64,000 nt of DNA from a virus, in IMG/VR virus record IMGVR_UViG_3300021092_000008; one strand, given 5' to 3'. The notes beneath the pieces were generated by a model that was given only the letters and a program-made list of their open reading frames with translations, searched no databases and was not told the DNA's origin. The position numbers and the translations under genes are program-made. Below are positions 7,101 to 61,175 of the stretch, one piece after another (the first letter of the stretch is position 1; each line of letters begins with the position of its first letter).

Positions 7101-10100
7101 TAATGATGCCTTCATCCAGTGTGTATCGGTATTCGCTGTAGGATTCCATGATCACTTCTTAATGGAATCTGGTGGTGATATGTCTATCACCAACTCCAAC
7201 TCAAACTTCGGTAATACGTCACTACATGCTGCTGGATTTAAAGGATTTGCTTTTAATCAAGATAAAGGCGGATACATTACAGATATTATTCCAGTAAAAG
7301 AAATTGATTCTAGTTCTTTCAATGAAAATACTTTAAAATATTATTCAATTGCTCTACAACCAACAAAATTAGAATCTAACAATACAAAGCTATATTATGG
7401 TGCTGATAATGCTTATGATCCATTCACTAAACCAACCACAACTATTGAAACATATAGATTAGGTGCTAAAAATGATGAGAAGATTTTTCTAAAGTTAAAA
7501 TCAACTAGTGGGTCTACAGACGAATATAATTGTACTTTATCACCATCAGGATTTAAGAGATATACCGTATCATTAGATACTTTAAATCCAGATGGAGTTT
7601 CTATTGATAGTGTAGCACAAGATGCTGCTAATAGAATTGAAGATAATAAAACGTTCATTCAACAGGAAGCATACGGATATATCATACAAAAATATCCAAA
7701 TCTTCTTACAAATACTAATATTACCATCTCTAAATGTCAAAGAGATATTGGTATCTTTGTTGATGCTGTTATTCAAGATTTAAGACTTGGTGGAAATATC
7801 AATACGATTCAAGCTGCTGAAGGATACTATGTTGGTGGACAACTTTCTTATATTACTAGTGAATTAAATGAAACCATTGAAGGACTTGATTATGTGAAGA
7901 ATCTTTGTATCTCAGCAATGAGAAACTTTGATTATCTAATTAGAAATTGTGCTACAACTACTGGGTCTCCAATTGTTGATATTGGTGATACTAGCGGTAT
8001 TGTAATTGGAATGAAAGTAACTCAGTATGCTTATAATACTACTAATTTTACTAATGGTAGATTGAATGCTAATGCTGTTCCTGTTACGGATTTCCCTGTT
8101 ATTCCTTCAAATGTTTATGTAAAAAGAATTTTAGATGCTACAAAAATTGAACTCGGTACACAAGGAAGCAAATTATCCACAGGAACAACTGTAGTTGCCA
8201 ACACCACTACTGCTAGTGGTGCGTATTTGTATTTTGAACTTCCTCAAACTGCTTCTTTAACAGATAGCAATAACAATTTACAAGGTGCTTGGGCAGCACA
8301 ATTTGCTACTAAAGATCCTACTATTCTCCAAGATACAAGTACTTGGACTGGAACTGAAAAAGGATATCCAGAATGTGTTGATATTGCTACCACTATTCAA
8401 GGATATTTTAGCAACGTTAATTTAATTTTAAATCAAGGATTATCTCCTTTAAATAGCACAGCAATTGATGCTTCTAATTTAATCAAGTCTAATAAACAGT
8501 TAATTGCTGAAGTTGCTGTTGATAGGATGTTAACATACTTCCCTGGATTTGTAATTCCTGGAGGTAATCAAGAGTGTATTGATGATGTTCTTAAAGTTAT
8601 TGATGCTCTAACATTTAACGTTAAGTATGGATCTAATAGTAAAATTTATGAAGCTGGATTACTTTATGCTACTCAACCTGCTTTACTAGCAGGCGAAAGA
8701 TCACAATCTACATACGTTTATCAGCAAGTAAGAGACATGGCTATTCAAGCCATGAGAAATGAAACCATTACAATTACTGGATCTACTTTAACTCAATATA
8801 AAGATTTAACTATTCTACAAGATCCATTAAACCCAGCATGTGCTGGTGTTGCTACTGCCATCAATAATTTGATGGCTATTCTTATTCAATCGATTGGAAC
8901 AGAAGACACTCCTGGTAATTTGAATGGTATTACAAAAACTACACCTGAGTTTACTAATATCACCAGAGTAGAATCTACATTAGATACTGCTAATCTTGCC
9001 ACAAGAGCTACTTTATTTACTGTTAATACTGGTGGTGGAACATCGAATCCCCATAACTTTGAAACTGGTACGCCTGTTAGACTTGTTCCTAGAGCAAAAG
9101 ATGGAACTTATCCAGATAAAAGAGTTATTAGACTTCCAAGAGGATTTGATACAAATACAATCTATTATGTAATTGCTCCTGGGCGTGGAACATACCCAGA
9201 AAATTATGCTGATGACGCTATATATCCAAATATTTTTGGACCTACCGCATCAACTAAACTGATGCTTGCTAGCACAAAAGAAAATGCTGCTGCTGGTATT
9301 TACATTTATTCTTCTGAAACTGATTCTGTTGATCAAAATGTTGAAATCGAATTACAGCAATATACTCTCGATGAAACTTATAATTTACACAAATACACCT
9401 GTAATTTTACCGCTGGGCAAACTGATGTAATTAAAACAGATATTCCTCATATCTTTGATACTCCTGGAAATATTAATCAAGTTCAGAAAATTTTCTTTAG
9501 AACATTTGGTGATCCAGCAGATTCTCAATTACCACAAATCACAGTTAACGGTGTAAGTTCTCCAGTATCAACAACTGAATATTACTATGTAAGATATGTT
9601 TCTTCTAAGACATTTAGCGTACATACAACAGCTGCTGAAGCTCTTGCTGGAACACCTAGAGTAACATTTACTTCTGGATTTGGTAAAGATTTCTATGTAT
9701 TTGCTGATAAAAGAGTAAGTCCAGTTAGATTTGATGTTACTGCTCAAGTTATTGAAACTTCTACTAATATAACCAGAACTGGTTTGTGGTACATAAATGT
9801 TAAAGACGAAACTACAGAACAATATAATATTTTAAAAAGATTACATGAACTAGGTGCTACAGTAAAAGACGAAAGAAGTAAGAATACTTTCTATAAGAGA
9901 CTTACTGATTCTAGAACAGCTGCTGATAGAATTTATAGATTACGTTATGTAATCCCAGAATATGCTGAAGGAGTTAGAGATCCTTTAAGAGGATTTGTTA
10001 TCAAAGCAAGAACTGACGAAACTAGAAAACTTCTACCACAGAAAATTATTCTTAAGAAAGTTGCTAGTGGTAGTCCAAACGTTGCTTATTTTGAAACTGA

Positions 10101-31141: not shown

Positions 31142-31518
31142 TAGCTAGGGATTTTGTAGAATTTATTATTGAATGGACTGAAGCATTAAATAAAACTTTA
31201 ATGGTTATCAGAACAACAGGACCAGATAGTGCTACTGATGTTGAAAAAGTAAATCACATTTATTCTGTTTATAAATCAAATTTTGAATCAGATCGAGTTG
31301 ATTTCTTTAATAAATTTTTGTATAATGAATTTACTTTCTTAGAATTTGATTCCGAAGAAGAAGCATATGACTTTGGAATTCAAAATTTTCCAATGAATAA
31401 AAATGGAGATATGGATTTCTTTGTTCAGTTTTTTATATTCAGTAATGGCAATTTAGCTTATGCTAACGATTCATTATCTGGATTGTCTGACAGAATACCA
31501 CCACCACGAACCAGTTGA
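31138..31518 (+). CDS. hypothetical protein
   Basis: AGGAG RBS; ATGA overlap. Confidence 0.75.
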   Translation: MIARDFVEFIIEWTEALNKTLMVIRTTGPDSATDVEKVNHIYSVYKSNFESDRVDFFNKFLYNEFTFLEFDSEEEAYDFGIQNFPMNKNGDMDFFVQFFIFSNGNLAYANDSLSGLSDRIPPPRTS

Positions 31519-31565
31519 ATAATTGGCATAAGGGTCTTGACAGACCCCTTTTTTTATGCCATACT
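31508..31565 (+). promoter_or_regulatory. early promoter with 8-6-8 palindrome; -35 box sits inside a terminator hairpin
   Basis: GAACCAGT-N6-ATTGGCAT; TTGACA(31537)-17-CATACT; GGGTCT-TGAC-AGACCC followed by a T-run. Confidence 0.75.
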
Positions 31566-31590
31566 ATCTGTATTGACATTTCACCTCGTT

Positions 31591-32829
31591 ATGTTGCTTC
31601 GTCCTCACCAACAGAGTGGTTGTGCTGCTATGGAGCAGTATAACATCGGTCAACTGCTCATGCCTACGGGCGCTGGCAAGACCCCTACAATGATTCATGA
31701 CTGTATTCGTGTGTTTGACACTGTAGACGCCGCTACGGTCGTTGTGGTCGCTCCTAGGATCCTTCTGGCAGAGCAACTGTCTGCTGAGTTTCTTGAGCAC
31801 ATTACTAACGCTTCTGTACTTCATATTCATAGTGGTGAAACTCACCACTTCAAGACTACTAACCCCAATGTAATCAGTCAATGGGTGGAGAGTCATAAGT
31901 CCCACAACAAACTTATTTTCACAACCTATAACTCTCTTATTCGGGTTCAGCAGTCTGGCATTGATGTCCACACTGTCTATTGTGACGAGGCACATAATTC
32001 TATCAAGAAGAATTTCTTTCCTGCTATAGAATATTTTTCTGGTGCTGCTGATCGTTGCTATTTCTTTACTGCCACTCCTAAGCATTCCAACACTATGTCT
32101 AAACCAGGCATGAATGATATTGATGTATACGGTAAGGTTATCTGTGATGTTCCTGCTACCGATATGGTCAAGCAAGGTTATATTCTTCCTCCTACCGTTG
32201 TTCCTTACGTTGTTGATTACGAACGTTTGAAAGGTGATCTTGCTGCTAGCAGCGATCATGTTACTCTCGTTAATATTATCGACGAACTGGATGAGGATGC
32301 TGCTTCTAAAATTCTGGTGGCAGTTCCTAGCAGCAAAGTGATGTGGAATCTGCTGTCTCAAACTACTATTCTCAATGACCTTGAAGATCGTGGTTATGAT
32401 GTGCTTCATATCACTAGCAAGTATGGTGCTTGGGTTAACAAAACCAAAGTCAACCGTGAGGTATTCTTTGATACGTTCAATGCTTGGGGCAAAGATCCCA
32501 ACCGTAAATTTGTAATTTTCCATTATAGCATTCTTGCTGAGGGTATCAACGTTCATGGTCTGACTCACACCATTCTGCTCCGTACTCTTGATGTCATCGA
32601 GATGGCACAGACTATCGGTAGGGTTATCCGTCTCAATAAAGACGATGCTGCTGACCTTTCTAGTGGTAGAATTGCTGTTGGTGACTATGCTATGTACCGT
32701 AAACCCACTGGTTTTGTGACTGTTCCTGTGTTCAAGAACTATGGTGATCGTACTATCAAACGTCTTCAGAACCTTGTCGATACTATTTTCGTTCAAGGCA
32801 AACCCGCTGTTTCTGTGGTCAACCGATGA
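31591..32829 (+). CDS. SF2 DEAH helicase (type III Res-like)
   Basis: LRPHQ, PTGAGKT, DEAH, TATP, EGI.V, QTIGRVIR; ATG at 31591 lies downstream of the promoter. Confidence 0.9.
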   Translation: MLLRPHQQSGCAAMEQYNIGQLLMPTGAGKTPTMIHDCIRVFDTVDAATVVVVAPRILLAEQLSAEFLEHITNASVLHIHSGETHHFKTTNPNVISQWVESHKSHNKLIFTTYNSLIRVQQSGIDVHTVYCDEAHNSIKKNFFPAIEYFSGAADRCYFFTATPKHSNTMSKPGMNDIDVYGKVICDVPATDMVKQGYILPPTVVPYVVDYERLKGDLAASSDHVTLVNIIDELDEDAASKILVAVPSSKVMWNLLSQTTILNDLEDRGYDVLHITSKYGAWVNKTKVNREVFFDTFNAWGKDPNRKFVIFHYSILAEGINVHGLTHTILLRTLDVIEMAQTIGRVIRLNKDDAADLSSGRIAVGDYAMYRKPTGFVTVPVFKNYGDRTIKRLQNLVDTIFVQGKPAVSVVNR

Positions 32830-43816: not shown

Positions 43817-44869
43817 ATGGCTGTATCAAGAGCAGTATATAGAGGAGGAATAACACCAGGGGGCAGTCAGGTATTTAATTCTCCTGGTACTTGGGTTGCT
43901 CCGCCTAAAATTGTAAATGTCTCTGCTTCTGGTAGGGGCGCAGTTGGTCAGCCTGGCGGCACAGGTAATGGTGGCAACCCTGGATTCAGAGGGCAGAGGG
44001 GCAATGGTGGTGTTGGTACAGCAGGAAATGCCAGTCATGGTGGCGGTGGCGGCGGTGGTGGAAATGCTGTGCCATTTCCTGTTAGAGCAAACCCTGGAAA
44101 CAATGGGGGCGTCAGCGGTGGTGGCGGCGGGGCTCGAGGAAATCGCCCAGGGTTCCCTGGGCAAAGGGGCGGAAGTGGAAGTGCTGGTTCTGCTGGAACT
44201 AAAGGATCAGCCCCGCCTGGAAATAACGCCATCGCGCCAGGGGGAGGTGGTGGTGGTAACACAGGAGGGCAAGGACAGACGGGAGCAGCATCAATATTTG
44301 CTGGGTTAAATTTCCCTGGTGGTCCTGGCGGTAATGGTGGAAAAGGAAATAATGGAGCAGCTGGAAATCCTGGAAATCCTGGTACTGCTGGTACTGCTGG
44401 TAATGGTAATCCTGGTGGAAACGGTGGAGGTGGTGGCACTGGTGGTAGCAACAGTGGCGGATTAAGACCTGGCGGTGGTGGCGGACAGCAAGGTGGCAAT
44501 AATGGCCAGGCTGCTGCTGGTTCTGGAGGCGGCGGTGGCGGGTCTGGTGGAACTGGCGGCGCGCCAGGTAGAAATGGTGGTAATGGAGGATCTGGTGGTA
44601 ATGCTAACCCTCCAAATCGCCCAGGTAGCCGAAGAGGTGGCGGCGGCGGTGGCGGCGGCGGGCGTGGAAATCCTGGAAACCAAGGAGCTACTGGAGGACA
44701 GGGAAATAATGGTAATCCTGGAGCTGCTGGAAATCCTGTTGCTGGTAATCCTGGAAACCCAGCAAATACAACAATATACAATTCAATAACAGTTACCCCA
44801 GGGCAATCATATCCCGTAACTGTCAATAACCCTGGCGGATCTGTAACTGTTTCTTGGAATCCACAATAA
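43817..44869 (+). CDS. glycine-rich collagen-like/polyglycine-II fibre or adhesin protein
   Basis: Gly-X-Y runs (GNPGNPGTAGTAG), poly-G tracts, about 20 X-Pro-Gly, no Asp/Glu/Cys; globular ends F.SPGTW.AP and VTPGQSYPVTV. Confidence 0.8.
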   Translation: MAVSRAVYRGGITPGGSQVFNSPGTWVAPPKIVNVSASGRGAVGQPGGTGNGGNPGFRGQRGNGGVGTAGNASHGGGGGGGGNAVPFPVRANPGNNGGVSGGGGGARGNRPGFPGQRGGSGSAGSAGTKGSAPPGNNAIAPGGGGGGNTGGQGQTGAASIFAGLNFPGGPGGNGGKGNNGAAGNPGNPGTAGTAGNGNPGGNGGGGGTGGSNSGGLRPGGGGGQQGGNNGQAAAGSGGGGGGSGGTGGAPGRNGGNGGSGGNANPPNRPGSRRGGGGGGGGGRGNPGNQGATGGQGNNGNPGAAGNPVAGNPGNPANTTIYNSITVTPGQSYPVTVNNPGGSVTVSWNPQ

Positions 44870-47364: not shown

Positions 47365-47574
47365 ATGTCACAAACGAGATCTCAACAAACAGATCTTACC
47401 GAAGAAGAATGGAAAGAATTAGTCGCCCTTAAAAATCAAATAAATCAAAATCCAGCAGCAGTACATCCAGAAAAAATGGAGTTATTTACTGAATTGTTAG
47501 TTAGATCTTGGAATGCCAAATGTGATCCGCCTGATACTTCTACATGGAGAACTGGTCATCCGCTGGATGAATGA
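47365..47574 (+). CDS. small hypothetical protein
   Basis: GGAG RBS; EL.ALK..I..NPA.VHP..ME.FTELLVRS. Confidence 0.7.
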   Translation: MSQTRSQQTDLTEEEWKELVALKNQINQNPAAVHPEKMELFTELLVRSWNAKCDPPDTSTWRTGHPLDE

Positions 47575-47630
47575 AACAGTTTAACAACTGGCACACACTA
47601 CCGCCACATGGCGGTTTTTTAATCTATACT
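47573..47630 (+). promoter_or_regulatory. early promoter with 8-6-8 palindrome and embedded terminator
   Basis: GAAACAGT-N6-ACTGGCAC; ACCGCC-ACAT-GGCGGT followed by Ts; TATACT 30 nt after palindrome. Confidence 0.7.
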
Positions 47631-47652
47631 AAATGAGTTCAAGAGATTTCCT

Positions 47653-48306
47653 ATGAAACTTTACCCGCTTGGTCTTGACAACCCCTATGTGATCCGTGGT
47701 ATGATTGGATCAAGTCGGTGGGGGTTGTATCGTCGAGACCCATTTGAAAAGGTAGCAGAATTTGCTACTCAGTTCCAAGCATATGATGCTCGCCGTGCTA
47801 TTCTTAAATTTGAAGGTTACTCAGCATGAAAACTTCCACTGTTATTGAATTTGGTCCCTATTCACAATATAAACCAGTTAAACCACCAAAAACTCCACGA
47901 TACAGATATCCATATTTGGATATTAAACAAACTGGTCAAGATTATGGATTTTTTGTTGGTAGAAAGAAAAGACCTGAGATTCCAAAAACTATTAAAAATC
48001 GTGTTTGGGCAGTTCTTCCCGCCGAAAGAGAAGGACAAAAGGGGTATTACATTTATGTTAAAAATTTCACCAATGGGTTTAATCCTTTTGCAGAAAATAA
48101 TTATGACTGAAGATTCTGTACGTCTAAATGTCCATGAGATTGGTATTCTTCTCTCAGCACTACAACAAGTAGATCTGAGAGAGGAAGTTCAAATTGCCAG
48201 ACAATATGGCAGTGTGGCAGCACTGTATAACAAACTATACAGTGTTTGGGAACAGATGGACACTTCCCAAACTGTCCTACAGAACGACGTAGTGCCGTCC
48301 TTCTGA
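47653..48306 (+). other. three small early genes (47653-47829, 47826-48110, 48103-48306)
   Basis: overlapping ORFs after early promoter. Confidence 0.65.
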
Positions 48307-48315
48307 CCCTATAAT
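48257..48315 (+). promoter_or_regulatory. early promoter with 8-6-8 palindrome
   Basis: TGGACACT-N6-ACTGTCCT; TATAAT 31 nt later. Confidence 0.75.
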
Positions 48316-48339
48316 ATCAAAGTATTCAACAGAACTCCA

Positions 48340-48753
48340 ATGGCAACCCGCTCCCGTATCGGTATTCAACTCGCAGACGATTCTGTGCTCTCAGTGTATT
48401 GCCACTGGGATGGTTATCCTGCCTTCAATGGTGTCAAACTTCAACAACATTTCAACACTCGTGAGAAGGTTGCTGAGTTGATTGATGGTGGTGACATCAG
48501 TGCTCTCCACACCAACGTCGGTTGGGATAATGAGACGCTACCTGAAACTGGTCCTCTCTACTATTCTTCTCGTGGTGAGGAGAATCGTGGTCCTCGTCAT
48601 GACTGGCGCATCAGTGACTATCTCACTCAAGATGCAGAAGAGTATGCCTATCTCTTTACCACCGATGGAGAGTGGTTGTGCTACGATACTTGTAAGTGGC
48701 ACGATGTAACTTATCTTGAACTTCAAGAAATTCCTCAACAGGTAGCAGCATGA
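48340..48753 (+). CDS. conserved phage early protein
   Basis: MATRSRIG...SVYCHWDGYP...EYAYLF. Confidence 0.8.
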   Translation: MATRSRIGIQLADDSVLSVYCHWDGYPAFNGVKLQQHFNTREKVAELIDGGDISALHTNVGWDNETLPETGPLYYSSRGEENRGPRHDWRISDYLTQDAEEYAYLFTTDGEWLCYDTCKWHDVTYLELQEIPQQVAA

Positions 48754-50130
48754 AATACTATCTCTTCTTTACCATTCTCTTTGGTTTGATAATCGGGTGG
48801 CAAGCATTCCTTGTCACCAGAGATAATAAAATGTTTGAAGGTTACAAGAACCGTCAACAACAAATTTGTGAACAAGTCAAAGAATTCCACCCTGATTGCC
48901 ACATCGAATGATTAACGATATCCGTATTGACAAATCATGGCGTTCTACTGATCCTGATGATCTCAACATTGATGATCTAATGCTCATGGCATTTGAAGAA
49001 AAAGCAGCAGAACTTGAAATCACTGTAGATTATTATATGGCAGAGTTTATCTGATGAGATACAAAGATATTACAAAACTGAAGAATTGCCCAAAGTGTAA
49101 CACAAATTGGGTAGCAGGTGAAATTCCCGAAGAATATCGGGAAAATTATTCTGCTCCGTATTTTTACAGTCGTGTGATTGGTGTTGAATTTCTTGGTGAA
49201 GATCGTATCCATCATTGGATGTGCCCAGATTGTAAATACGAATTCCCACGAGGATAATAAATGCCTATTACAATTAGTAAAGCGGAAATTCTACGGAACT
49301 TTCCGCATACACCACCGACAGGATACTCTTATGATGTCGAAGATCACAATACTCGTACTGTTCGTATTATTATGTGGCATCATTACGTCTACGACTTCAA
49401 TCTCGGGAAACCAGTCAAAACCATCTGGGGTTTCTATAATCCGAAAAAGAAATTATATTATGCTCCGATCAACTATGATCGTGTAGGTGAACAAGTAGAT
49501 ATTAAAAATACTACTAAATATACAGCGATGCCATTGTTGGTATAATTTTATGACACCTGATCAATCAAATGCTCTATTGAAAGAATATGCTGACCTAATT
49601 AAAGATCTTCAAAATGAAAATGCTGATCTCTGTGATAAGGTACAGATGCTAGAGAATTATATTCAAGAGCTAGAGTTTCAATTTAACACATCACACGATA
49701 AATCTTATGACTGCTGATATAATCGTAGATTTCGATACACATCTTCATAACGGTAGAGTTTATCTAGTAGAACTAGAATTACCTTATCAAGATGAGAATG
49801 AAGAAGAATCATCTGTAATGAAAGTTGATTACTATGTCATCTCAAATAATTCCATTCAAGCAATGTATTTTGCTAATACTGACTATCCTGATGCTGTAGG
49901 AGTTTTTGTTCATGAAGATCCAATTACACCCGAACAATATGCTACCAGAGGGAACAGAGGTATATTATAGAGGCATGTTTGGTGTAGTCAAATTCACATG
50001 TGATGAATATATGACTGTATGTGTCCGCCATTTCCCTGATGATCCACGGCGAGATGTTTGTATGCTCGTCTATAAAAACCAATTAAATGAACTTGAACTT
50101 GTACGAGGTAACCATTCACACGAATCATGA
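48750..50130 (+). other. run of small hypothetical genes (48750-48911, 48908-49054, 49054-49257 with CxxC/CxxC zinc ribbon, 49261-49545, 49707-49970, 49939-50130)
   Basis: packed + strand ORFs. Confidence 0.6.
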
Positions 50131-50256
50131 TGTTAAACGATAAATTTGATAATATGAATAATTTTGTCCTTGATCAAGTTGATAATCTCATGGATTGCTA
50201 TGATAATCCTGTAGTCCGTGAGCGTATCCTACGTGAGGCGGAAGATCAATTGTTTG

Positions 50257-50314
50257 AGGACAGTTTTGAAACTGTCCCCTGGGACCTCCTAGAGGACTTC
50301 TAAACCTCTATACT
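50257..50314 (+). promoter_or_regulatory. early promoter with 8-6-8 palindrome
   Basis: AGGACAGT-N6-ACTGTCCC; TATACT 30 nt later. Confidence 0.75.
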
Positions 50315-50339
50315 AACTACATACCAAACAACCCCACCA

Positions 50340-50693
50340 ATGACTGCTACCTTCGCCCAGTTTCAAGCAGAACAAGACGCTCGTAACACCATCCATCTCA
50401 ACATCGTCAAGTACGGTATGATGTTGTGTGATGCTCTCCAACAGACTGCTCCCGATGGTTATTTCTTCGCCCTTGAGTCTTCTGGTCGTAAGTATCATAA
50501 AGTCTTCATGTATATCGATGGTCGTCGTGACAGCATCCATGCTTTCATTGACAAGAAGACTGGTGATGTGTTCAAACCTGCTAGCATCAAAGCTCCTGCT
50601 AAGCATGTTCGTTTCAATGTGCTCTCTATTCCTTCCCGTGAAGAGATGTTCCGTCGTGCTAACTGGGCGGGTGGTTATCTTTACCTTCGCTGA
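50340..50693 (+). CDS. conserved cyanophage early protein
   Basis: GRKYHKV...SIHAFIDKKTGDV.KPAS.KAPAK. Confidence 0.8.
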   Translation: MTATFAQFQAEQDARNTIHLNIVKYGMMLCDALQQTAPDGYFFALESSGRKYHKVFMYIDGRRDSIHAFIDKKTGDVFKPASIKAPAKHVRFNVLSIPSREEMFRRANWAGGYLYLR

Positions 50694-50732
50694 TTTCTGT
50701 GCTACAATCTTACTAAACACACAAGGAGAATC

Positions 50733-51650
50733 ATGTCCTACAACTTGATGTATGTTGTTATTCAAGATAAAGCACTCAGTATTGATGACTTCGGTCAACC
50801 TATTATCTGTAATCTTGTTCGTGATGAGCATGATTCTATGATTGAATGGGTTGATTGGGATTCTGCTGATGTCATTGATTGGTTAGATCTTTCCCCTACT
50901 ACAAATAAAATCTATCGTCAATGTATTGATCTCCTTCAAACTACAGAAACTAAAGCGTACTACGTCAAATGACTAAACTCTCTAACCTCACAGTGTCTCA
51001 TATTCAGACACTCATGGAATCATTTCCACAACTCCAACCAGGAACACATACACTCCGTGTATTCCCACATACTCAAATTTCAGAAGCAGAATTAGCACTG
51101 TTCTGGAAATATCATGGTAACTTCCCACAAGAATTTACACAAGCAATTATTAATATCTTACCTAATAATGCTGAATTTATTTCCTATGATCATCTCCTGA
51201 ATAATGTTACTGTTATTCAAAAATGATACCAGCAGCTCTTACTATTCTTCAACTCTGCTTCAATCAATATTATATCTGTGAATCACCAGATCCTCCTCCA
51301 ATTGCATACTATCAAGAAGGCTATGCCTGTTATATCAATGGCACCTTTCATCAATCCTGTCCTAAACCAGATTACTTGACAAAACCTACCACAAAATCCT
51401 ATAATAGGAACAACTACTAATGTACACCATGACCGAAGAGCAATCAGTATCAAAACAAGTGGATCATATCCTAGAAACTTATTTTGAACAGTTCTCTCAT
51501 CTCGTATCTAAAAATCGTAATGATGATGCTATTGCTATCGGTGATGAGGTACGTGAGTGGATGCGTAGTATTGAAACAGAAACTATTCTATACTTTAATA
51601 TTAAAGAACTACGCCAACAATATAGACAATTAAAAAAAGAAAATGGCTGA
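50733..51650 (+). other. four small hypothetical genes (50733-50972, 50969-51226, 51223-51420, 51420-51650)
   Basis: overlapping ORFs; AGGAG RBS at the first. Confidence 0.6.
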
Positions 51651-52263
51651 TCCAGCAGCATTATACAATACTAAATTACCAAAAGATATTACTGACCTTA
51701 TCTCTATTCATTGTCAGTCATATCATAATCAATTAGAAGCATCAACAATTAAATCTAGTGGTGTAGTACATTCAAAAAGAGATTCTCTTAATGCTTGGAT
51801 TCCAGATGAAGATTGGATAGCAGGTTTTCTTTGGTATTATATCCAAAAAGCAAATTTTGCTAATTGGAGATTTGATATTACATCTATTGATAATTCCTCC
51901 TTACAATATACAGTCTATAATCCTGGTCAATTCTATCATTGGCATACTGATTCAGGATTACGTCGATTGTATCAATCAGAAAGATATCCTACTTCTCAAT
52001 CAGTTCATCTAAAAGATTACGTTATGCCATTAGCAGAATATACTCGTAAATTATCTTTCTCTCTTCAACTATCAGACTCAGATGAATATACAGGAGGACA
52101 ATTACAACTCATTGCTAATGATGATCTAAACCTTAATATAGCACCAGTAGAAAGAGGTACATTAATTATCTTTGATTCTCATCTACGTCATCGTGTTACT
52201 AAAGTTAAATCAGGTCAACGTAAATCTTTAGTCGGTTGGGTAGTAGGTCCAAGATGGAAATAG
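51643..52263 (+). CDS. 2OG-Fe(II) oxygenase (PKHD-type)
   Basis: LQYT.Y, WHTD, RKLSFSLQLS, HRVT.V.SG.RKSLVGWVVGP. Confidence 0.9.
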   Translation: MADPAALYNTKLPKDITDLISIHCQSYHNQLEASTIKSSGVVHSKRDSLNAWIPDEDWIAGFLWYYIQKANFANWRFDITSIDNSSLQYTVYNPGQFYHWHTDSGLRRLYQSERYPTSQSVHLKDYVMPLAEYTRKLSFSLQLSDSDEYTGGQLQLIANDDLNLNIAPVERGTLIIFDSHLRHRVTKVKSGQRKSLVGWVVGPRWK

Positions 52264-52299
52264 TTTTCCACAATTTCCACAGTTTCCGCAATTTCCACA
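52264..52299 (+). repeat. four tandem 9-mers resembling DnaA boxes
   Basis: TTTTCCACA ATTTCCACA GTTTCCGCA ATTTCCACA head-to-tail, followed by an A/T-only tract. Confidence 0.8.
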
Positions 52300-52379
52300 G
52301 GTATTTAAAAATATATTAAAAAATATAGGTAGTGTGATCTATTGTACGGTAGAGTATGTAAATGGGCGGAGGTCTTGTT

Positions 52380-52408
52380 GTCTTAGCGCCCAACCCATCG
52401 AAAGTCAA
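52380..52408 (-). promoter_or_regulatory. leftward sigma70-like promoter
   Basis: minus strand TTGACT-17nt-TAAGAC. Confidence 0.5.
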
Positions 52409-52416
52409 GGAAGTAT

Positions 52417-52485
52417 ATGACAGTCCTCAAAGTGGCACAGAGACCCTCCGAGACCCTTGACAGATGCCTCTAAATGCCCTATACT
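52417..52485 (+). promoter_or_regulatory. early promoter with 8-6-8 palindrome
   Basis: ATGACAGT-N6-AGTGGCAC; TTGACA(52457)-17-TATACT; palindrome-to--10 spacing 41 nt. Confidence 0.75.
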
Positions 52486-52666
52486 GTATTTGTGATTGGT
52501 CATCACGAAATTAAATGGAAGCGAGATTGAGAGATTTCGAGGTTTTCCAAAATCTTCGAAATCTCAAAAATCTCAAAATCTCAAAAACTTAAAAAACTTA
52601 CTTTTTTAGTTTTTTAAGATTTTCAAAAAACTCAATTTTTAAATTTTAATGATTTTACTGAATTCA

Positions 52667-52921
52667 ATGATTACTAAAGAAGATCAAGGAGTAGTATATC
52701 AAGGATTTAATAGTACTGCTATTAAATCAGTTGGTATTATTGAGAATACTTGTACTGTAGTATTTAATTCTAGTGATAAAGAATATAATTACACAGTAAT
52801 TGATAATAATTTTGAAGAAAACCTTCAAAATACTATCAAAAATGGTGAAAGTGTTGGTAAATTTATCACTTCAGCAATCAAAAGTGAAAATATCCAACAA
52901 ATAAATACGATTGTACAGTAA
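52667..52921 (+). CDS. KTSC-like small protein
   Basis: STAI.SV......V.F....Y.Y....ESVGKFI. Confidence 0.6.
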   Translation: MITKEDQGVVYQGFNSTAIKSVGIIENTCTVVFNSSDKEYNYTVIDNNFEENLQNTIKNGESVGKFITSAIKSENIQQINTIVQ

Positions 52922-52953
52922 TTCTTAACAATTATCACTGTTTTATTCAAACA

Positions 52954-53118
52954 ATGACAAAAAACAACCGAAAGTATACCGAATCCTTCAAAGAAGTGAG
53001 CTTTGAAGATGAATATGAAGATTATGGTTATGAAGTTCAGAATGCCAAACGTTACTCAAGTCGAAGTAAACGTCAAGCAAAATTCAAAGACCACGATGAT
53101 ACATACGTAGACTATTGA
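52954..53118 (+). CDS. small charged hypothetical protein (54 aa)
   Basis: hand-translated ORF followed by terminator. Confidence 0.55.
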   Translation: MTKNNRKYTESFKEVSFEDEYEDYGYEVQNAKRYSSRSKRQAKFKDHDDTYVDY

Positions 53119-53132
53119 ATGTAAACTTTACC

Positions 53133-53155
53133 ACCCATCTTCGGATGGGTTTTTT
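53133..53155 (+). terminator. intrinsic terminator with UUCG loop
   Basis: ACCCATC-TTCG-GATGGGT-TTTTT. Confidence 0.85.
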
Positions 53156-53270
53156 CATAGCATCAAATATCCCCTCGGTGGTATCACCCTAGGACAGTTT
53201 AAGAAGTGGCACAGAAGACCTCCCAGGGGTGTCTGGTGGTGATATATTACATGAGTCGTCAGGAATTCCA

Positions 53271-53447
53271 ATGAAGGACATTCGAATCGAGGTTCAAACT
53301 TACGATGGTTGTATCACCATCTGGTACGAACGTTCTAAGTTAAAGAATGCCTGTGATGTTATCTCCAAACGTGTATACAATCAGCTGTGTGGTTTGAATA
53401 TTAAAGAGATCGACGTGAGCGTTATCGGTGATCCTGTGACAGTCTGA
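53271..53447 (+). CDS. small early protein
   Basis: ATG after promoter; stop codon inside next palindrome. Confidence 0.7.
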   Translation: MKDIRIEVQTYDGCITIWYERSKLKNACDVISKRVYNQLCGLNIKEIDVSVIGDPVTV

Positions 53448-53519
53448 CAAGTGTCCACAGGGCATTGACTTCGCCCCCAACCCATGCCATACTATGTACA
53501 TCACTGAGGGATTCACCCC

Positions 53520-53846
53520 ATGAGAAAGATCGAACGTCTGATGAACGCTGCCATCACCGAGCAACGTGACTGGAAACTTGATAACACTGAAGTTGTCACT
53601 ATTGATGGTGTCAGTTCTGTATTTCTTCACGGCAATTGTATTGCTGAGGTTGGTGATACTTTTGTCCGACTGTTTGATGGTGGTTGGCAATCCAATACCA
53701 CCAAATCTCGTCTCAATGCTATCCTTCGGGAGCATGGTCGTGATGGTGAGTGTGTGTTTCAAAAGCAGTGGCATTGGTTCATTAATCTGAACACTGACCG
53801 AGGTATTGAAACTGTGCCTTTCCGTTCTTCTATGAAACTTGCTTGA
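53520..53846 (+). CDS. conserved early protein
   Basis: MRKIE..M..AI...LHGN.IA...GW.S.TTKSRLNA. Confidence 0.8.
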   Translation: MRKIERLMNAAITEQRDWKLDNTEVVTIDGVSSVFLHGNCIAEVGDTFVRLFDGGWQSNTTKSRLNAILREHGRDGECVFQKQWHWFINLNTDRGIETVPFRSSMKLA

Positions 53847-53961
53847 GTATGTCACATTACTCAACTCCTTACATTCCCAGTTTTATTGAATATTCAAATT
53901 TTACAAAAATATGGATTTTTTGGATTTTCAAAATTTTAAAAACTATTAAATCTCAATAATT

Positions 53962-54078
53962 ATGACTTTTACTGATTATCTAATTGAAGAGATTAACGAT
54001 GAAGAATTCTATGAAGATATAGAATTCGATGATAGTAGTGCTAACTACTATGATATAGATTATACTACTCAAGAGTAG
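53962..54078 (+). CDS. very acidic microprotein (38 aa)
   Basis: 14 Asp/Glu, no Lys/Arg. Confidence 0.5.
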   Translation: MTFTDYLIEEINDEEFYEDIEFDDSSANYYDIDYTTQE

Positions 54079-54116
54079 TATATACAAACCCCACTGTTCT
54101 TTTGCTTTCTTTTACT

Positions 54117-54293
54117 ATGTCTACTTCACTGATGATTAAACTGCTGGATCGTACCGCTAATGGTAACGAACTGTTGAAAGTTCTTGATAGTTTTGTCGAG
54201 CAAGATCCTGTCGATCAGCATATGGAACTGATGACTGAAATGTATGACAAAATGAAGTCTAATCAGCCTACACTAGAAACCATCGATTTCTGA
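54117..54293 (+). CDS. small early protein
   Basis: ORF MSTSLMIKLLDRTANGNELL. Confidence 0.65.
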   Translation: MSTSLMIKLLDRTANGNELLKVLDSFVEQDPVDQHMELMTEMYDKMKSNQPTLETIDF

Positions 54294-54379
54294 TATTAAT
54301 GTGCCAGATCAACAAGTGTCCACTGATTCCCCCATTGGTCACTTGTTGATGCCATACTACATCTGTTCCAAACGAAATC

Positions 54380-55134
54380 ATGCCTGACTTCTACACATTC
54401 ACTGGTGACGGTATTACCATTCTTGGTTTGGTTGGTATTATCTCAACTGGTATCATTGTTGCCACAGCGTTCACTCGTTATTTCAATTCACCCCTGAGAA
54501 AGTGATGACGTACAACGAACTCCTGCAACAGTTGCAACAACTCAACGAAGATCAACTCAATTCTGATGTTGCCGTCTACGATGAAGGCACCGATGAGTAT
54601 TATCAACTCAAAGTTGAGTTAGTGTTTGCAACTGATGAATGTCAGGTGCTTGATGTAGACCACCCTATCATTCGTTTCTGATGCAATTCCAAGTTACTTC
54701 CATTGAGTATGATTTCACTGGATCTGAGGATGAGATTACAGATGCTGAGATGAATGACATCATCGACGATACAGTAGGACACATCTGGGAGGCAGATGAT
54801 GAAGATGATCTCATTGAAGAGATCACTTCGTGGACAGGTTGGTGCATCAAATCCATTGATTATCGTCACATTCTGAACTGAAACCATGACCAACAACGCT
54901 TACACTTGGACTGACAACTTCTCCGAACTTTGTGAGAAGTATGCTGAACATGTGATGGACAGCATGGACATGAAGACGATGGAACAATTCGTCTTCGATA
55001 CACTTTACGAGTGCTATTCTGCCTATGATGAAGAACAGTTGATCAATGAGATTCGTGAGTTGTATGGTGACGAAGTGCTGGAAGATTTTGGCATTGAACT
55101 TAAAGAAGGTCCAGATGATGTGACAGTTGACTAA
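54380..55134 (+). other. four small early genes (54380-54505 membrane, 54505-54681, 54681-54881, 54886-55134 acidic)
   Basis: coupled ORFs after promoter 54301. Confidence 0.7.
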
Positions 55135-55201
55135 GTGGTACACAGGGGGTTGAAATGCCCCCTGATCGATGCCATACTAACCACATCAACCACAAACACA
55201 G

Positions 55202-55482
55202 ATGTACTACAACCGCTACGACATGCTGACCGCCTTTACCACTGACGAGATGGCAGTGCTCTATGATCTGGTCTGCTCCCATCAGGGCTGCCAGATCCTC
55301 CCCGACTGGATGGATCAAAAGGTCTTCGACAGTGTACAGGAAAAAGTCAGCGACGCCTACCATGAGACCACATGAATCACTACCTTGCCGCCGCTCTCCT
55401 GATGATCGTCGCCATCGGTTTCCCCATGATGTGTGCCGCCTTGGGCATGAAGGTCAACACCCGCAACGGATGGTGGGACTGA
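55202..55482 (+). other. two small early genes (55202-55375, 55372-55482)
   Basis: hand-translated; ATGA coupling; GC-rich codons. Confidence 0.6.
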
Positions 55483-55544
55483 CCACCTGACTAAGTGGCA
55501 CATAGGGGGTTGAAATGCCCCCCGATCCATGCCATACTAACAGC

Positions 55545-55733
55545 ATGAACAACCTTAACCCCTCACTGATGGAACGCCGCTTCACCGTCTACGTTCCGTC
55601 TGACCCCTGGGAATCTATCGACTGCCAGACCTGGGCAGAGGCGCAGCGCCTGCTCGCCATCAAAGCAGACGAGTTCGTCTACGCTGAGATTCGGAAGGAT
55701 GGGGTGATCCTTGACGATCTCCAGATCCTGTGA
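55545..55733 (+). CDS. small early protein
   Basis: ATG right after CATACT promoter; stop codon inside next palindrome. Confidence 0.65.
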   Translation: MNNLNPSLMERRFTVYVPSDPWESIDCQTWAEAQRLLAIKADEFVYAEIRKDGVILDDLQIL

Positions 55734-55815
55734 CAGTGGAGGCACTGTCCACCAACTACCCCAAACCCCATCAGGGGCTGCCATACTAAGAGCATCAACC
55801 AAACGAACCAAACCT

Positions 55816-56013
55816 ATGTGGGATGAGATCCAAGACATGCCTGGCGAGATCTACGACGTGAACCCCTACGTCGCTCAGATCCTCTCCCAAGGCAAAGAGC
55901 CCAGCAAGGCACCCGCCCCCACGGCGACCTACCCTCGGGAAATCCACGGTCGAGTCTACCAGACCGAGGCAGAATACCGTGAGGACCTCCATGACTTTCT
56001 GAACGGTATGTGA
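55816..56013 (+). CDS. small early protein
   Basis: MWDEIQDMPGEIYD; A/C-rich leader. Confidence 0.7.
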   Translation: MWDEIQDMPGEIYDVNPYVAQILSQGKEPSKAPAPTATYPREIHGRVYQTEAEYREDLHDFLNGM

Positions 56014-56091
56014 CAGTGTAGGGGGTGTCCACAGATGCCCCCAAACCCCACCAGGGGCTGCCATACTATCAGCATCAACCAAACCAAACCA

Positions 56092-56265
56092 ATGAAGATC
56101 GAAGTTCGTTACCAGACCCCCTACAGCAGCCAGGAGTGGCGGTCACAGTGGTTCCCCACGCTGGCAGAGGCTGAGCGGATGGTGGACTTCTACCGCTCCT
56201 GTGGATCACCCGCCCATGTGGCACCTAGCAGTCTGGCACAGTTCGAGCACCTCGGGCGCTCCTGA
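56092..56265 (+). CDS. small early protein
   Basis: MKIEVRYQTPY...RMVDFYRSCGSPA. Confidence 0.7.
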   Translation: MKIEVRYQTPYSSQEWRSQWFPTLAEAERMVDFYRSCGSPAHVAPSSLAQFEHLGRS

Positions 56266-56303
56266 CCCTGTAGACTAACCACATCAACCAAACGACTCAA
56301 ACC

Positions 56304-56525
56304 ATGACGACCTACAACGGATGGGCAAACTGGGAGACCTGGAACGTCGCCCTGTGGATTCAGAACGATGAGCGGACCTACAACCTCGCTCAAAAGTTCA
56401 CCCGCTACAACGCTCTCATTCCCCACCTTGAGATGCTGTGGGGGCAGATGACCCCAGACGGTGCCCGTTGGATGGACGCTAAGATCGACACCGACGAACT
56501 GGACGAGATGCTGGACGATTTCTGA
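56304..56525 (+). CDS. small early protein
   Basis: YNGWANWETWNVALWI.ND...TPDG. Confidence 0.75.
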   Translation: MTTYNGWANWETWNVALWIQNDERTYNLAQKFTRYNALIPHLEMLWGQMTPDGARWMDAKIDTDELDEMLDDF

Positions 56526-56597
56526 ACTGTCCACAGGGGGGCGCCTTCCCCCCTCCCCCGCCTCTATACTAAACACATCAACCAAACGAACCAGACC

Positions 56598-56774
56598 ATG
56601 CTCAAGACTCTCGCCATCCTCGCCCTCGGCGCCGCCTTCTATGCCCCCATCGCTACCGTGGGTGCTGCTGCCATCGACTTCGCTGCTGACACCGTTCAGG
56701 CAGTCAACCAACAGACCGCCGCCCGCTGTGCCACCTACAACAGTGTCCTCCCTGGCGCCTGTGAGATGCCCTGA
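56598..56774 (+). CDS. small secreted/membrane early protein
   Basis: signal-like MLKTLAILALGAAFYAP; two Cys. Confidence 0.6.
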   Translation: MLKTLAILALGAAFYAPIATVGAAAIDFAADTVQAVNQQTAARCATYNSVLPGACEMP

Positions 56775-56812
56775 GCGTCTAGACTAACCACATCAACCAA
56801 ACGACTTCAACC

Positions 56813-56968
56813 ATGGCAACCACTTCCTTCGCTTACGGCAACTCCTACTCCCAGTCCGACCGCTTCTATGAGGACTGTGAGCACGACGACCTGATGGACG
56901 CCGACGATTACGATGCCCGCCGCTTCCAGCGTGACGGTTGGGAAAGCGCCTGCTGGGATGGTCGCTGA
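56813..56968 (+). CDS. small acidic early protein
   Basis: hand-translated ORF after repeated leader. Confidence 0.6.
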   Translation: MATTSFAYGNSYSQSDRFYEDCEHDDLMDADDYDARRFQRDGWESACWDGR

Positions 56969-57010
56969 CCCCCTGACCCTGTAGACTAACCACACACACA
57001 CAGACACCAC

Positions 57011-57211
57011 ATGAATTTCGCAACCGCCACCCCCGAGCAACTCACCGCCGCTGGGTTCAAGTTCAAGACCGTCCGCCCCCGCCGCCCACGTAAGGGTGAG
57101 TTGATCTGTGAGATGGTCAAGTTCAGCACCAAGCGAGGCAGTCAGCAGTGGCGAGATCGTGCTCACATCGCCTCTCCCAGCGCCTACGCTGTTGTGATGG
57201 GCAACGGTTGA
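57011..57211 (+). CDS. small basic early protein
   Basis: ORF after TAGACT and C/A-rich leader. Confidence 0.65.
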   Translation: MNFATATPEQLTAAGFKFKTVRPRRPRKGELICEMVKFSTKRGSQQWRDRAHIASPSAYAVVMGNG

Positions 57212-59375: not shown

Positions 59376-61175
59376 ATGCCATACACTCAGGTTTCTAATC
59401 TAGACTTTAATGATATTAAAGTAGCGTTAAAAGATTATTTAAAGACACAATCTGATTTTACTGGTTATGATTTTGAGGGTTCTGTATGGAACACTCTTCT
59501 TGATGTGTTGGCATATAACACATACTACACGGCATTCAATACCAACATGGTAGTGAATGAACTATTTTTAGATTCTGCCACATTAAGAGATAATGTTGTA
59601 GCAATTGCTAAGCAGTTAGGATACACACCAAAGTCTGCTATTGCTCCAGAAGCAAGAGTTAATTTCCAGATTAATTTTACAGGTACAATTCCAACTACAA
59701 TCACCTTAAAGAAAGGAACTGGATTTACAACCATTTATGATGGTGATTTATATGAGTATGTTACCGTTGATAATATAACCGCTCCAGTTGTAGCTGGGGT
59801 TGCCAATTTTACAAATGTTCCAATTTACGAAGGAACTATTGTCACAAATTCATATACTATTAACACATCACTAAAAAGTCAAAGATTTATTATTCAGAAT
59901 GTGGGATTAGATGTATCATCTATTCGTGTCAAAGTTTTCGATACAGTTTCTTCGACAGCATATAAAACTTTTGAATATTCAAATAATATCCTTGATGTCA
60001 ATTCACAATCACTTGTTTTCTTTGTAGAAGAAATTGAAGACGAGAATTATGAAATTTTCTTTGGTGATGGTGTAATTGGAAAGAAATTACTTAATGGTAA
60101 TTTTGTTGAGGTTACATATTTACTCACAAATGGTTCCGCCACAAATGGTTCTAGACAATTTACATTTGCTGGCGTGTTACAAGATATTGATGGACTAACT
60201 AATTATCCATTTACAGTGACAAATGTAACTACAGCATCGATTGCTTCTGGCGGAGAAGAAGTTGAAAGTATTTCTAAAATCAAATTTAATGCTCCAAAAT
60301 ATTTTGGTACACAAGATAGAGCAGTTACGGCACAAGATTATGCTGCTATTGTAAGAAATATATACCCATCTATTTCTGATATTATCACTTATGGCGGAGA
60401 AAACGAAGTACCACCAGAATATGGAAAAGTTAAAATTGTTATTAAACCAAAAAATACCGCTTCACTATCGGTTCTAACAAAAAGAGATCTTACAGAAAAA
60501 TTAAAATCTTACATGGTAGGATCTGTGATTCCAGAAATTGTAGACCCATCTATTCTTTATCTAGAATTAATCAGTGATATATCTTTCAGTAAATCAAGAA
60601 CAACTCTTTCTGCAGCAGAAATTAAGAAAAAAGTTATTCAAACTATAGAAAAATATCTTGCTCAATCTGAAGTAGAAAAATTCAATGGTAAATTTAGATT
60701 AAGTAAAATTATTGGAACGATTGATAATACTGACCAATCAATTAATTCTAATAATACTAGAGTCATAATGAGGAAGGATTTTTATCCTGCTCTCAATTCA
60801 ACATTTTATTATGAGTTATGCTATCAGAATGAATTTGATTATGATTGTGATAGTCCTGCTGTACAATCAACTGGATTTGTTGTTAGTGAGTATCCCAACT
60901 TCACTTGCTATGTTGAAGATATGGATGGTGTGATTGTCCTATATAGATTGGATTCTCTAACTGGCGAAAAGATTGTTTTGAATGATTCTTTAGGTAAAGT
61001 TGATTATATTAAAGGTGAGGTGATGATGTACAATTTAACTATCATTAAAGGGTCTTTTGATGACAATAGAATTGAATTGAGAGTTAGACCAAAAAATGGT
61101 GATATTAATGTTTTAAGAGAAGCTTATATTGATGTAGATATTGCTCAAAGTAAATTTACGGTATATCCAGAATAA
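59376..61175 (+). CDS. gp6: baseplate wedge subunit gp6
   Basis: LDF..IK..LK.YL....F..YDFEGS....LLDVLAYNTYY; Q.RAVT..DY. Confidence 0.93.
   Translation: MPYTQVSNLDFNDIKVALKDYLKTQSDFTGYDFEGSVWNTLLDVLAYNTYYTAFNTNMVVNELFLDSATLRDNVVAIAKQLGYTPKSAIAPEARVNFQINFTGTIPTTITLKKGTGFTTIYDGDLYEYVTVDNITAPVVAGVANFTNVPIYEGTIVTNSYTINTSLKSQRFIIQNVGLDVSSIRVKVFDTVSSTAYKTFEYSNNILDVNSQSLVFFVEEIEDENYEIFFGDGVIGKKLLNGNFVEVTYLLTNGSATNGSRQFTFAGVLQDIDGLTNYPFTVTNVTTASIASGGEEVESISKIKFNAPKYFGTQDRAVTAQDYAAIVRNIYPSISDIITYGGENEVPPEYGKVKIVIKPKNTASLSVLTKRDLTEKLKSYMVGSVIPEIVDPSILYLELISDISFSKSRTTLSAAEIKKKVIQTIEKYLAQSEVEKFNGKFRLSKIIGTIDNTDQSINSNNTRVIMRKDFYPALNSTFYYELCYQNEFDYDCDSPAVQSTGFVVSEYPNFTCYVEDMDGVIVLYRLDSLTGEKIVLNDSLGKVDYIKGEVMMYNLTIIKGSFDDNRIELRVRPKNGDINVLREAYIDVDIAQSKFTVYPE

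Follow-up and report, generated by a model that had tools for sequence, protein, structure and literature searches.

What is the function of a short palindrome that recurs in front of, and often at the ends of, very small genes? The question is raised by a 64,000-nucleotide stretch of IMG/VR virus record IMGVR_UViG_3300021092_000008, analysed here as a whole and called the window, in which copies of such a palindrome cluster between positions 47573 and 57211. An initial annotation had proposed that it is both the binding site of a dimeric activator and a recombination site that marks gene cassettes in an integron-like array. Our analysis bears out the regulatory half of this proposal, by the conserved spacing, the independence of the two arms and a match to host yfr2 promoters, and speaks against the integron-like half. 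The palindrome (hereafter the dyad) is the upstream half of a promoter type that stands before small early-type genes of T4-like cyanophages, and the host regulator PlmA appears as the best candidate for its reader.

A weight matrix was made solely from sites of related phages and then applied to the window. It returned 16 sites of at least 12 bits on the + strand, 15 of them with a -10-like hexamer 28–33 nt past the 22-mer and one (52417) with the hexamer at 41 nt, while ten mononucleotide shuffles of the window gave 0–1 sites each and none with a -10. All 14 copies of the initial annotation were present, and its fixed distance of 30–31 nt to the -10 (41 nt in 52417, where a 10-bp repeat is visible in the sequence) agrees with the scan. 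Its twelve copies between 47573 and 56512 score 16–30 bits; those at 691 and 31508 are weak (12–13 bits), yet their -10 lies exactly 30 nt after the 22-mer. With the additional copies 56218 and 56728 and the weak ones at 56931 and 59800, the window has 16–18 dyads of 22–24 bp each. The core ACAGT-N6-ASTG has 10 exact sites in the 64 kb, 8 of them within 47.5–56 kb. Several copies had been described as devoid of a recognisable -35 box, in agreement with a sigma-70 consensus scan that accepted just 4 of the 16 units.

The same unit recurs in other phages. Eighty related IMG/VR contigs were collected via the phrog_818 gene, and the motif scan of related genomes that had been suggested as a check gave 395 dyad sites in them, a site scoring 16 bits or higher being present in about 60 of the contigs. 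The -10-like hexamers that follow these sites pile up at 30 nt (100 sites) and 31 nt (59 sites), the other offsets being nearly empty. The consensus of 280 distinct units is TGTGMCASTT-N4-AASTGKCACA. In their alignment, information is high in both arms and in the -10, which is of the TATAAT/TATACT type and is followed 21–27 nt further by the start codon, and it is flat across the -35 region: the match to TTGACA is 3/6 or less in 76% of the units, and an extended -10 occurs in 12.5%. No trade-off was found between the quality of the -35 and that of the dyad (rho 0.12). For 42 distinct units located upstream of one orthologous gene, pairwise identity was 64% in the dyad, 34% in the spacer and 27% in the upstream DNA. 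The dyad is thus kept while its surroundings are near random, which indicates that selection acts on the site and its distance and not on the intervening sequence. This conservation of the 30–31 nt spacing in about 300 sites of other phages, across unrelated spacers, supports the phased dimeric activator of the initial annotation.

Among named cyanophages, Syn9 carries a dyad with a -10 at 44775, 47205, 48559, 49079, 51001, 51212 and 52997, in its gp60–gp90 region of small genes, and further such sites at 1133, 127493 and 148743. Its helicase gene gp75 is preceded by a dyad unit, parallel to the window, where the 31508 unit precedes a helicase open reading frame (ORF) at 31537–32829 with recognisable helicase domains. 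The unit is also present in S-PM2 and in the S-RIM14 group. Since its spacing is unchanged and a conserved -35 is lacking in the related contigs, S-PM2 and Syn9 alike, we regard it as a promoter class of cyanomyoviruses.

The two arms behave as half-sites and not as the strands of a stem. At the two variable positions (A/C and G/C), Watson-Crick pairs between the arms of the 280 units numbered 120 for 130 expected and 107 for 131 expected, and the complementarity of the arms extends to 3–9 of 10 positions, with a mode of 5. The arms therefore vary independently while specific bases are conserved, as in the half-sites of a dimeric protein; the dyad is a protein site, not a hairpin. Folding is found in the spacer, with a mean of -6.1 kcal/mol compared with -4.0 kcal/mol in shuffles (p = 4e-11, 280 units). 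Spacers at -8.8 kcal/mol or lower occur in 10 of the 16 window copies, and in two window copies a T run beside the spacer hairpin makes it an intrinsic terminator. With its structured spacer and its promoter, the unit is thus a combined stop/start signal, in line with the idea of promoter/stem-loop cassettes (PeSLs), to which a sequence-specific site is added.

The initial annotation had pointed to eight copies in which the upstream ORF stops within or at the edge of the palindrome (stops at 31518, 47574, 53447, 55134, 55482, 55733, 56013 and 56525), correctly in every case. In the relatives, 46% of the upstream ORFs stop at -5 to +14 from the dyad start, mainly at two offsets, and another 30% read through the site and stop later, in the spacer. 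The same read-through occurs in window copies 691, 48257, 50257, 56218, 56728 and 56931, whose upstream ORFs stop 35–47 nt later. Stops fall at the dyad because its consensus spells TGA or T-GA/T-AA and because genes are packed against the promoter. The tidy "cassette" look of the region results from promoter geometry and tight packing, and not from an integron-like system.

The site has a counterpart in cyanobacterial genomes. When 185,579 genomes were scanned for the strict dyad, several cyanobacteria were among the many that contained it. In Anabaena sp. CCY 9613 (L164), a perfect dyad is followed after 30 nt by TATTCT and then by a gene of the Cyano-1/Yfr2 small RNA (sRNA) family. More generally, 11 of 19 Yfr2 upstream regions from outside the picocyanobacteria score 14–31 bits at -62 to -65 (one at -69) from the Rfam start, and the site begins there 54–55 nt before the -10, the phage distance being 53–54 nt. 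These genomes hold 3–5 such sites (at most 2 mismatches) per 5–8 Mb, against 0–1 for a control pattern. The host family was represented by 61 genomes, and a half-site motif was derived from their 29 Yfr2 promoters. Its core GMCASTT lies at -55 to -61 in 16 of these 29 picocyanobacterial promoters, about 1.2 being expected anywhere, and its A/C and G/C wobble is that of the phage arms. In GC-rich picocyanobacteria with a clear -10, the site start is 51–55 nt from it. At the sequence level, then, the phage dyad matches, in both its bases and its register, the site that stands before cyanobacterial yfr2 genes; its arms are arranged as in the yfr2 promoters of cyanobacteria other than picocyanobacteria, an arrangement that the host family hardly shows.

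These yfr2 sites lead to a known protein. The CGRE1 element of yfr2 promoters pulls down the GntR-family protein PMM1637 (PlmA), which also shifts it in an electrophoretic mobility shift assay (Lambrecht et al., 2018, PMC6191309) and activates it in a reporter assay; homologues of PMM1637/PlmA are found in all cyanobacteria, and Yfr2 is up under high light and nitrogen starvation (PMC6191309). PlmA also joins the PII-PipX complex, a sensor of energy and nitrogen status. The phage dyads resemble the CGRE1/PlmA promoters of yfr2 in having the same half-site of 9–10 bp with two wobble positions, upstream of a -10 and without a clear -35. CGRE1 is likewise palindromic and, on the host side, acts positively, and the yfr2 site outside the picocyanobacteria is the phage-type dyad in the same register. 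The two differ in the arrangement of the half-sites, which in picocyanobacteria are tail to tail (21–22 nt) or single and in the phages head to head with a 4-nt gap. The 21-nt tail-to-tail palindrome seen in the host family fits the published description of CGRE1. In the literature searched, we found no paper that links PlmA, CGRE1 or yfr2 promoters to cyanophage promoters.

Several further observations were made on the host side. Four Synechococcus-type Yfr2 promoters (L222, L241, L205 and L215) carry two sites built from the same half-site. The one near -60 is a weak dyad of the phage type; the other, located between the -35 and -10 positions, is a tail-to-tail palindrome and recalls the "-20" exception described for MIT9313 yfr2a by Lambrecht et al. 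Dyads that are perfect or nearly so, followed by a -10 after about 30 nt and not adjacent to a Cyano-1 hit, occur in Mojavia pulchra (G004, C12:83107, 85191 and 70169) and in G003 (C9:134824 and 134918); they are candidates for further members of the PlmA regulon, perhaps unannotated sRNAs. A 193,981-bp contig (G001:C1, L107) assigned to a "Synechococcus sp." metagenome-assembled genome (MAG) carries every one of the 8 dyad sites found in that genome; its length is that of a cyanomyovirus genome, and it is probably phage DNA binned with the MAG. The strict dyad pattern was also common in Acidobacteriota MAGs (Terracidiphilus, Bryobacterales, Pyrinomonadaceae and Blastocatellia; loci L085–L161), which hints at an unrelated regulon with a look-alike site.

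We consider it probable that each unit is an early-type cyanophage promoter whose dyad is bound by a dimeric, pre-existing protein, PlmA being the best candidate since the hosts' own yfr2 genes are preceded by a site of matching sequence and register. Such a promoter would be made of a -10 box, usually without a -35, and of a 24-bp two-armed site upstream, whose centre, 41–42 bp 5' of the first -10 base, would lie at about -53 if transcription starts some 7 nt past the -10. A dimeric DNA-binding protein present at the onset of infection would occupy the site on one face of the helix and recruit the host RNA polymerase. This protein may be PlmA (PMM1637 in Prochlorococcus MED4), a member of the GntR family, which as a host protein present at time zero would meet the need of an early promoter without a -35. 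The 30-nt spacer would be left free for other signals, such as the GC hairpin of about one third of the units, sometimes a full terminator, which may end or protect the upstream transcript. Tight packing would push the 3' ends of upstream genes as far as the dyad or past it, and the TGA is supplied by the consensus of the dyad. On these grounds we infer that the dyad activates transcription, and the genes behind it would, by analogy, be early genes. The more specific hypothesis that PlmA, the sole GntR-type regulator of the host, switches on the early genes of T4-like cyanophages, which would have copied the yfr2 promoter, is plausible, though we stop just short of calling it probable.

Several points weigh against this scheme. 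About one quarter of the related contigs have no dyad; their phrog_818 gene is served either by -35/-10 promoters embedded in hairpins or by another repeated cassette, so that the site is not obligatory. The term "early" rests on the position and size of the genes and on the analogy with Syn9, and classical class I activators do not usually bind with their centre near -53. On the host side, the yfr2 site of the host family consists of two tail-to-tail half-sites or of one half-site plus a AGCGCCCC-like element. The phage-type inverted dyad occurs in only 4 of the 61 host-family genomes, and in at least one of them (G001) all sites are on a single contig that is likely phage DNA. The arms being arranged differently in the host family, the binding of PlmA to the phage form is an extrapolation. 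Moreover, the yfr2 -10 is ambiguous in AT-rich Prochlorococcus, and the published start of CGRE1 at -55 to -57 does not fit the register unless the RNA begins about 10 nt before the Rfam model.

The dyad-less contigs L045, L064, L033, L025 and L027 were found to bear another repeated cassette of about 30 nt (for example at 7385–7420, 7652–7687 and 8044–8075 of L045). It ends in AAAGTGTCCCTATAGTGT, a word that resembles the right arm and touches a TATAGT box, and was counted 14 times in L045, 7 times in L064 and not at all in the window. This CCCTATAGT class stands opposite the dyad class among the relatives, and the two did not co-occur in the contigs examined. The AAAGTGTCCCTATAGTGT cassette may represent a second early-promoter class.

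With regard to known systems, the closest likeness may be to an element that Doron et al. reportedly described in 2016 as a "novel regulatory element" of early genes in the T4-like cyanophages Syn9 and P-TIM40. That element is said to be abundant and conserved among cyanomyoviruses, to differ from sigma-70 -35/-10 promoters and to precede small genes of the hyperplastic region. The dyads of the window and of Syn9 are likewise found before small genes of the hyperplastic region and are not sigma-70-like. Judged by this description, the dyad unit is probably the same element, and the suggestion of the initial annotation that the motif might already be known is thus probably right. No paper found in the literature searched names a protein that reads the cyanophage early element.

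Activator-dependent promoters without a -35 are well known from class I sites of CRP and from the MotA box of T4, located at -30. As in these promoters, a factor site phased with the -10 replaces the -35 in the phage units, and in copy 52417 it is displaced by one helical turn. The phage sequence differs, however, from the CRP (TGTGA-N6-TCACA) and NtcA (GTA-N8-TAC) sites and from the MotA box, and its centre near -53 is not a classical CRP position. Readings as a CRP, NtcA, LexA-type or MotA-box site were ruled out on sequence and spacing: the outer TGTG and CACA are 16 nt apart, with a centre about 41.5 bp before the -10, which corresponds neither to TGTGA-N6-TCACA nor to GTA-N8-TAC with a centre at -41.5 or -61.5. 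Cyanophages are also without motA and asiA (PMC2984593).

The PeSLs are cassettes in which T4-like phages combine a stem-loop with an early promoter (Arbiol et al., 2010, PMC2839356; Comeau et al., 2014, PMC4122927), and the paper on the S-PM2 "ORFanage" judged them sparse in S-PM2. Like the window units, they are repeated regulatory cassettes of about 80–100 nt between small genes of hyperplastic regions, and they join a stem-loop to an early promoter, as the spacer hairpins of the window do, with cassettes duplicated beside unrelated genes. Unlike them, PeSLs have a near-consensus -35/-10 with a 17-nt spacer and a Shine-Dalgarno sequence, and no sequence-specific dyad. In the window units the -35 is mostly absent, the hairpin lies inside the promoter, the CA-rich leader has no Shine-Dalgarno sequence and a conserved protein site is present.

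This likeness raises the question of whether the cassettes, from dyad to leader, serve as substrates of homologous recombination by which genes are duplicated, deleted or swapped as proposed for PeSLs, a reading compatible with the promoter function. The direct repeats noticed between neighbouring units in the initial annotation are real. Positions 55128–55193 and 55488–55553 share 88% identity over 66 nt, 55708–55812 and 55988–56092 share 76% over 105 nt, and a 52-nt repeat made of the -10 and the CA-rich leader has four copies (56261, 56555, 56770 and 56972, within 56261–57023, + strand). These paralogous cassettes are flanked by unrelated genes, and one edge of a duplication falls in the dyad centre of the 55480 unit. 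Orthologous genes have different promoter types in different phages: in contig L001, homology begins 3 nt before the ATG, and between L062 and L068 it breaks off precisely where a gene ends and one contig has a dyad cassette, the other a hairpin/-35 cassette. The precedent of the PeSLs (PMC2839356, PMC4122927) points in the same direction.

The breakpoints themselves are less clear. The comparison of indel breakpoints with the palindrome, another check suggested beforehand, covered six pairs among the 80 contigs, most pairs being identical or too diverged, and about 10 junctions. Some of these are at cassette edges, which are gene ends too, others are distant, and none has a cassette, or a copy of the dyad, at both ends. 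The three indels that could be resolved between near relatives are promoterless genes joined at start/stop overlaps, without a cassette repeat at both ends; an insertion of 858 bp in L013 and one of 218 bp in L062 are single genes of this kind, with ATGA/TGATG overlaps and no dyad copy on both sides. Other indels between relatives are far from any dyad, and the only one in 20 kb of the S-RIM14, S-ShM2 and S-SSM2 group (779 bp) is 1.2 kb away from the nearest dyad. Selection for intact genes would likewise place homology edges at gene ends. The apparent start of homology at the dyad before phrog_818 was rejected as a recombination signal, the upstream ORF being homologous but diverged and running through the dyad, which encodes part of the conserved acidic C-terminus of this ORF in that lineage. 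Cassettes duplicated beside unrelated genes speak for PeSL-like shuffling, as evoked in the initial annotation, but no inserted segment with a cassette at both ends was seen. We regard homologous exchange between duplicated promoter cassettes as possible, though doubtful.

As to the protein, the same promoter class could have another reader, either a phage protein, from the virion or made very early, that activates these genes or represses them for early shut-off, or some other regulator of the host. The near absence of the inverted dyad from host-family genomes, contrasting with its strict conservation in the phage lineage, would fit such a factor, as would the different arrangement of the arms in the picocyanobacterial PlmA site. 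The use of the dyad is also lineage-specific among the contigs, as expected with a co-occurring phage-encoded factor. However, the identical dyad stands in the same register before the yfr2 genes of Nostocales and other cyanobacteria, so that some cellular protein must read it, and the motif bound by PlmA (PMC6191309) has the same half-site with the same wobble positions. For a repressor, moreover, a site at about -64 to -43 misses the core promoter and would be poorly placed for simple repression. We therefore judge another reader unlikely and retain PlmA as the preferred candidate.

That the palindrome is an attC-like site of site-specific recombination, and the region an integron-like cassette array, was suggested by the imperfect palindrome at so many gene ends, by the eight stops in or at the dyads of the window and by the 46% of upstream ORFs that stop near the dyad start in the relatives. 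We consider this highly improbable. An attC site acts as a folded strand, and pairing of the arms is here unselected, even slightly avoided at one position. The position of the site is fixed to the -10, every site being tied to a -10 box, and not to gene ends: 30% of the upstream ORFs of the relatives and six of the window copies read through it, so that dyads often lie within ORFs, and the stops are explained by the TGA and T-GA/T-AA of the consensus. The resolvable indels are promoterless genes that are not flanked by the site on both sides, and no integrase was found among the part of the window ORFs that was scanned. The same site also stands before host sRNA genes, which are not cassettes. 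The lack of selected pairing and this occurrence before sRNA genes make an integron-like site-specific role very unlikely. The last alternative, that the palindrome forms an RNA or DNA stem-loop which terminates or processes transcripts or protects the 3' end of the upstream message, would suit its place at the 3' end of many genes and the stem-loop found just 5' of the promoter in PeSLs, but it is scarcely credible, since the bases and not the pairing are conserved and the separate GC hairpin of the spacer would serve such functions better; the covariation test thus ruled out the dyad as a hairpin.

The window itself is DNA of a T4-like cyanomyovirus. Its gene order parallels that of Syn9, with tRNAs, fibre-like giant genes, a helicase and 2OG-Fe(II) oxygenases, followed by the block of tiny genes, where the dyads cluster and which runs up to the baseplate genes gp25/gp6. 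The top nucleotide match in the phage collection was S-PM2, with 82% over 350 nt, and no close sequenced relative was found there. Compared with the 80 related contigs, blastn homology is restricted to ORFs and ends at start and stop codons; contigs L001 and L002 are mosaic and without dyads. An Rfam scan of the window returned tRNAs only. Ten small proteins of the region were scanned, with matches to families of unknown function or none, no search having been aimed at DNA-binding proteins.

The units of the window, all on the + strand, are as follows. The first (691–748, 12.1 bits) has a weak dyad at 691–712, a 30-nt spacer and TATAAT, and lies upstream of a cluster of six tRNA genes (907–1771). 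The unit of the helicase gene (31508–31565, 13.3 bits) also has a weak dyad, followed by a terminator-like hairpin of -12.5 kcal/mol with TTGACA in its loop, and its CATACT is at +30. At 47573–47630 (24.9 bits), the spacer contains an intrinsic terminator hairpin (47600–47615) with its T run before TATACT, and ORF 47653–47829 follows. The unit at 48257–48315, with TATAAT at 31 nt, contains the end of the upstream ORF (48306) in its spacer and heads an operon whose first ORF is 48340–48753 (phrog_1987). The next one (50257–50314, 24.4 bits, TATACT) has a perfect-core dyad located in the 3' end of ORF 50127–50303, whose stop is at 50301–50303. It precedes ORF 50340–50693 (phrog_818, T4-GC 68), which has homologues in 321 cyanophage records, and orthologous units are found at this place in 53 of 79 contigs. 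The unit at 52417–52485 (26.3 bits), whose 41-nt spacer includes the 10-bp duplication, has a consensus TTGACA-17-TATACT (11/12 in the sigma-70 scan), and the one at 53191–53248 (30.1 bits) has TATATT at 30 nt. The dyad of unit 53436–53493 contains the stop of ORF 53229–53447 and is followed by TTGACT-17-CATACT and ORF 53520–53846 (phrog_554), while unit 54301–54358 (22.4 bits), with CATACT at 30 nt, precedes ORF 54380–54505.

Further downstream, the dyad of unit 55120–55178 (26.8 bits) contains the stop of ORF 54886–55134; it is followed by a GC hairpin of -16.5 kcal/mol with TTGAAA in the loop, by CATACT and by ORF 55202–55375. Its paralogue at 55480–55538 (15.7 bits) has a damaged left arm, the similarity beginning in the dyad centre. 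Unit 55730–55787, with the stop of ORF 55545–55733 in its dyad, CATACT and no -35, precedes ORF 55816–56013 (phrog_649), and its paralogue at 56010–56067 has unrelated flanking genes. The dyad of unit 56218–56276 (12.2 bits, TAGACT at 31 nt) lies inside ORF 56035–56265, before ORF 56304–56525 (phrog_871). The stop of the latter is contained in the dyad of unit 56512–56570, which has a GC hairpin and TATACT and stands before ORF 56598–56774, itself the host of the dyad of unit 56728–56785 (14.3 bits, TAGACT at 30 nt), placed before ORF 56813–56968. A degenerate dyad read from the sequence (56931–56987, TAGACT at 29 nt) has a good left arm, while its right arm is of the AGCGCC type that also occurs in some host yfr2 promoters; it precedes ORF 57011–57211. 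Outside the region, a weak candidate (11.4 bits) with TATACT at 31 nt is located at 59800–59858.

Two compositional features of the window were also observed. Between 55000 and 57300, where about ten one-gene units follow each other, each with its own promoter and a common CA-rich leader, G+C reaches 54–59%, the remainder of the window being at about 35%; this suggests a recent gain from, or an adaptation to, a GC-rich source. A/T-rich non-coding stretches at 52264–52650 and 53880–53960 consist of tandem repeats of short units (TTTCCACAA x4, CAAAATCT x5.6 and a unit of 33–34 nt x2). They begin right after the promoter at 52417/52480 and precede ORF 53962, and they had no match in Rfam.

The window copies are thus new members of an element that has probably been published and whose structure is probably known. 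The analysis shows this element to be a protein site with two arms, held at a fixed distance from the -10 and the same as the yfr2 site. It adds the absence of covariation between the arms, the promoterless nature of the resolvable indels, the frequent location of dyads in ORFs and the second cassette class of dyad-less relatives. The negative result has its own importance, as the cassette-like layout of the region needs no integron-like recombination system. Few viruses that infect the ocean's main primary producers are as abundant as T4-like cyanophages. They are devoid of the proteins by which T4 reprograms RNA polymerase, and what is known of how their early genes are switched on amounts to the "novel regulatory element" reported earlier. 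With PlmA, a concrete host protein that can be purified is now named as a candidate for the start of early transcription. If PlmA is indeed the reader, the gap left by the missing T4 Alt, Mod, MotA and AsiA would be filled, and the start of infection would be coupled to the light, redox and nitrogen state of the host. Such a coupling might account for the dependence of cyanophage infection on light and for its diel rhythm, and would point to a route by which the host may become resistant.

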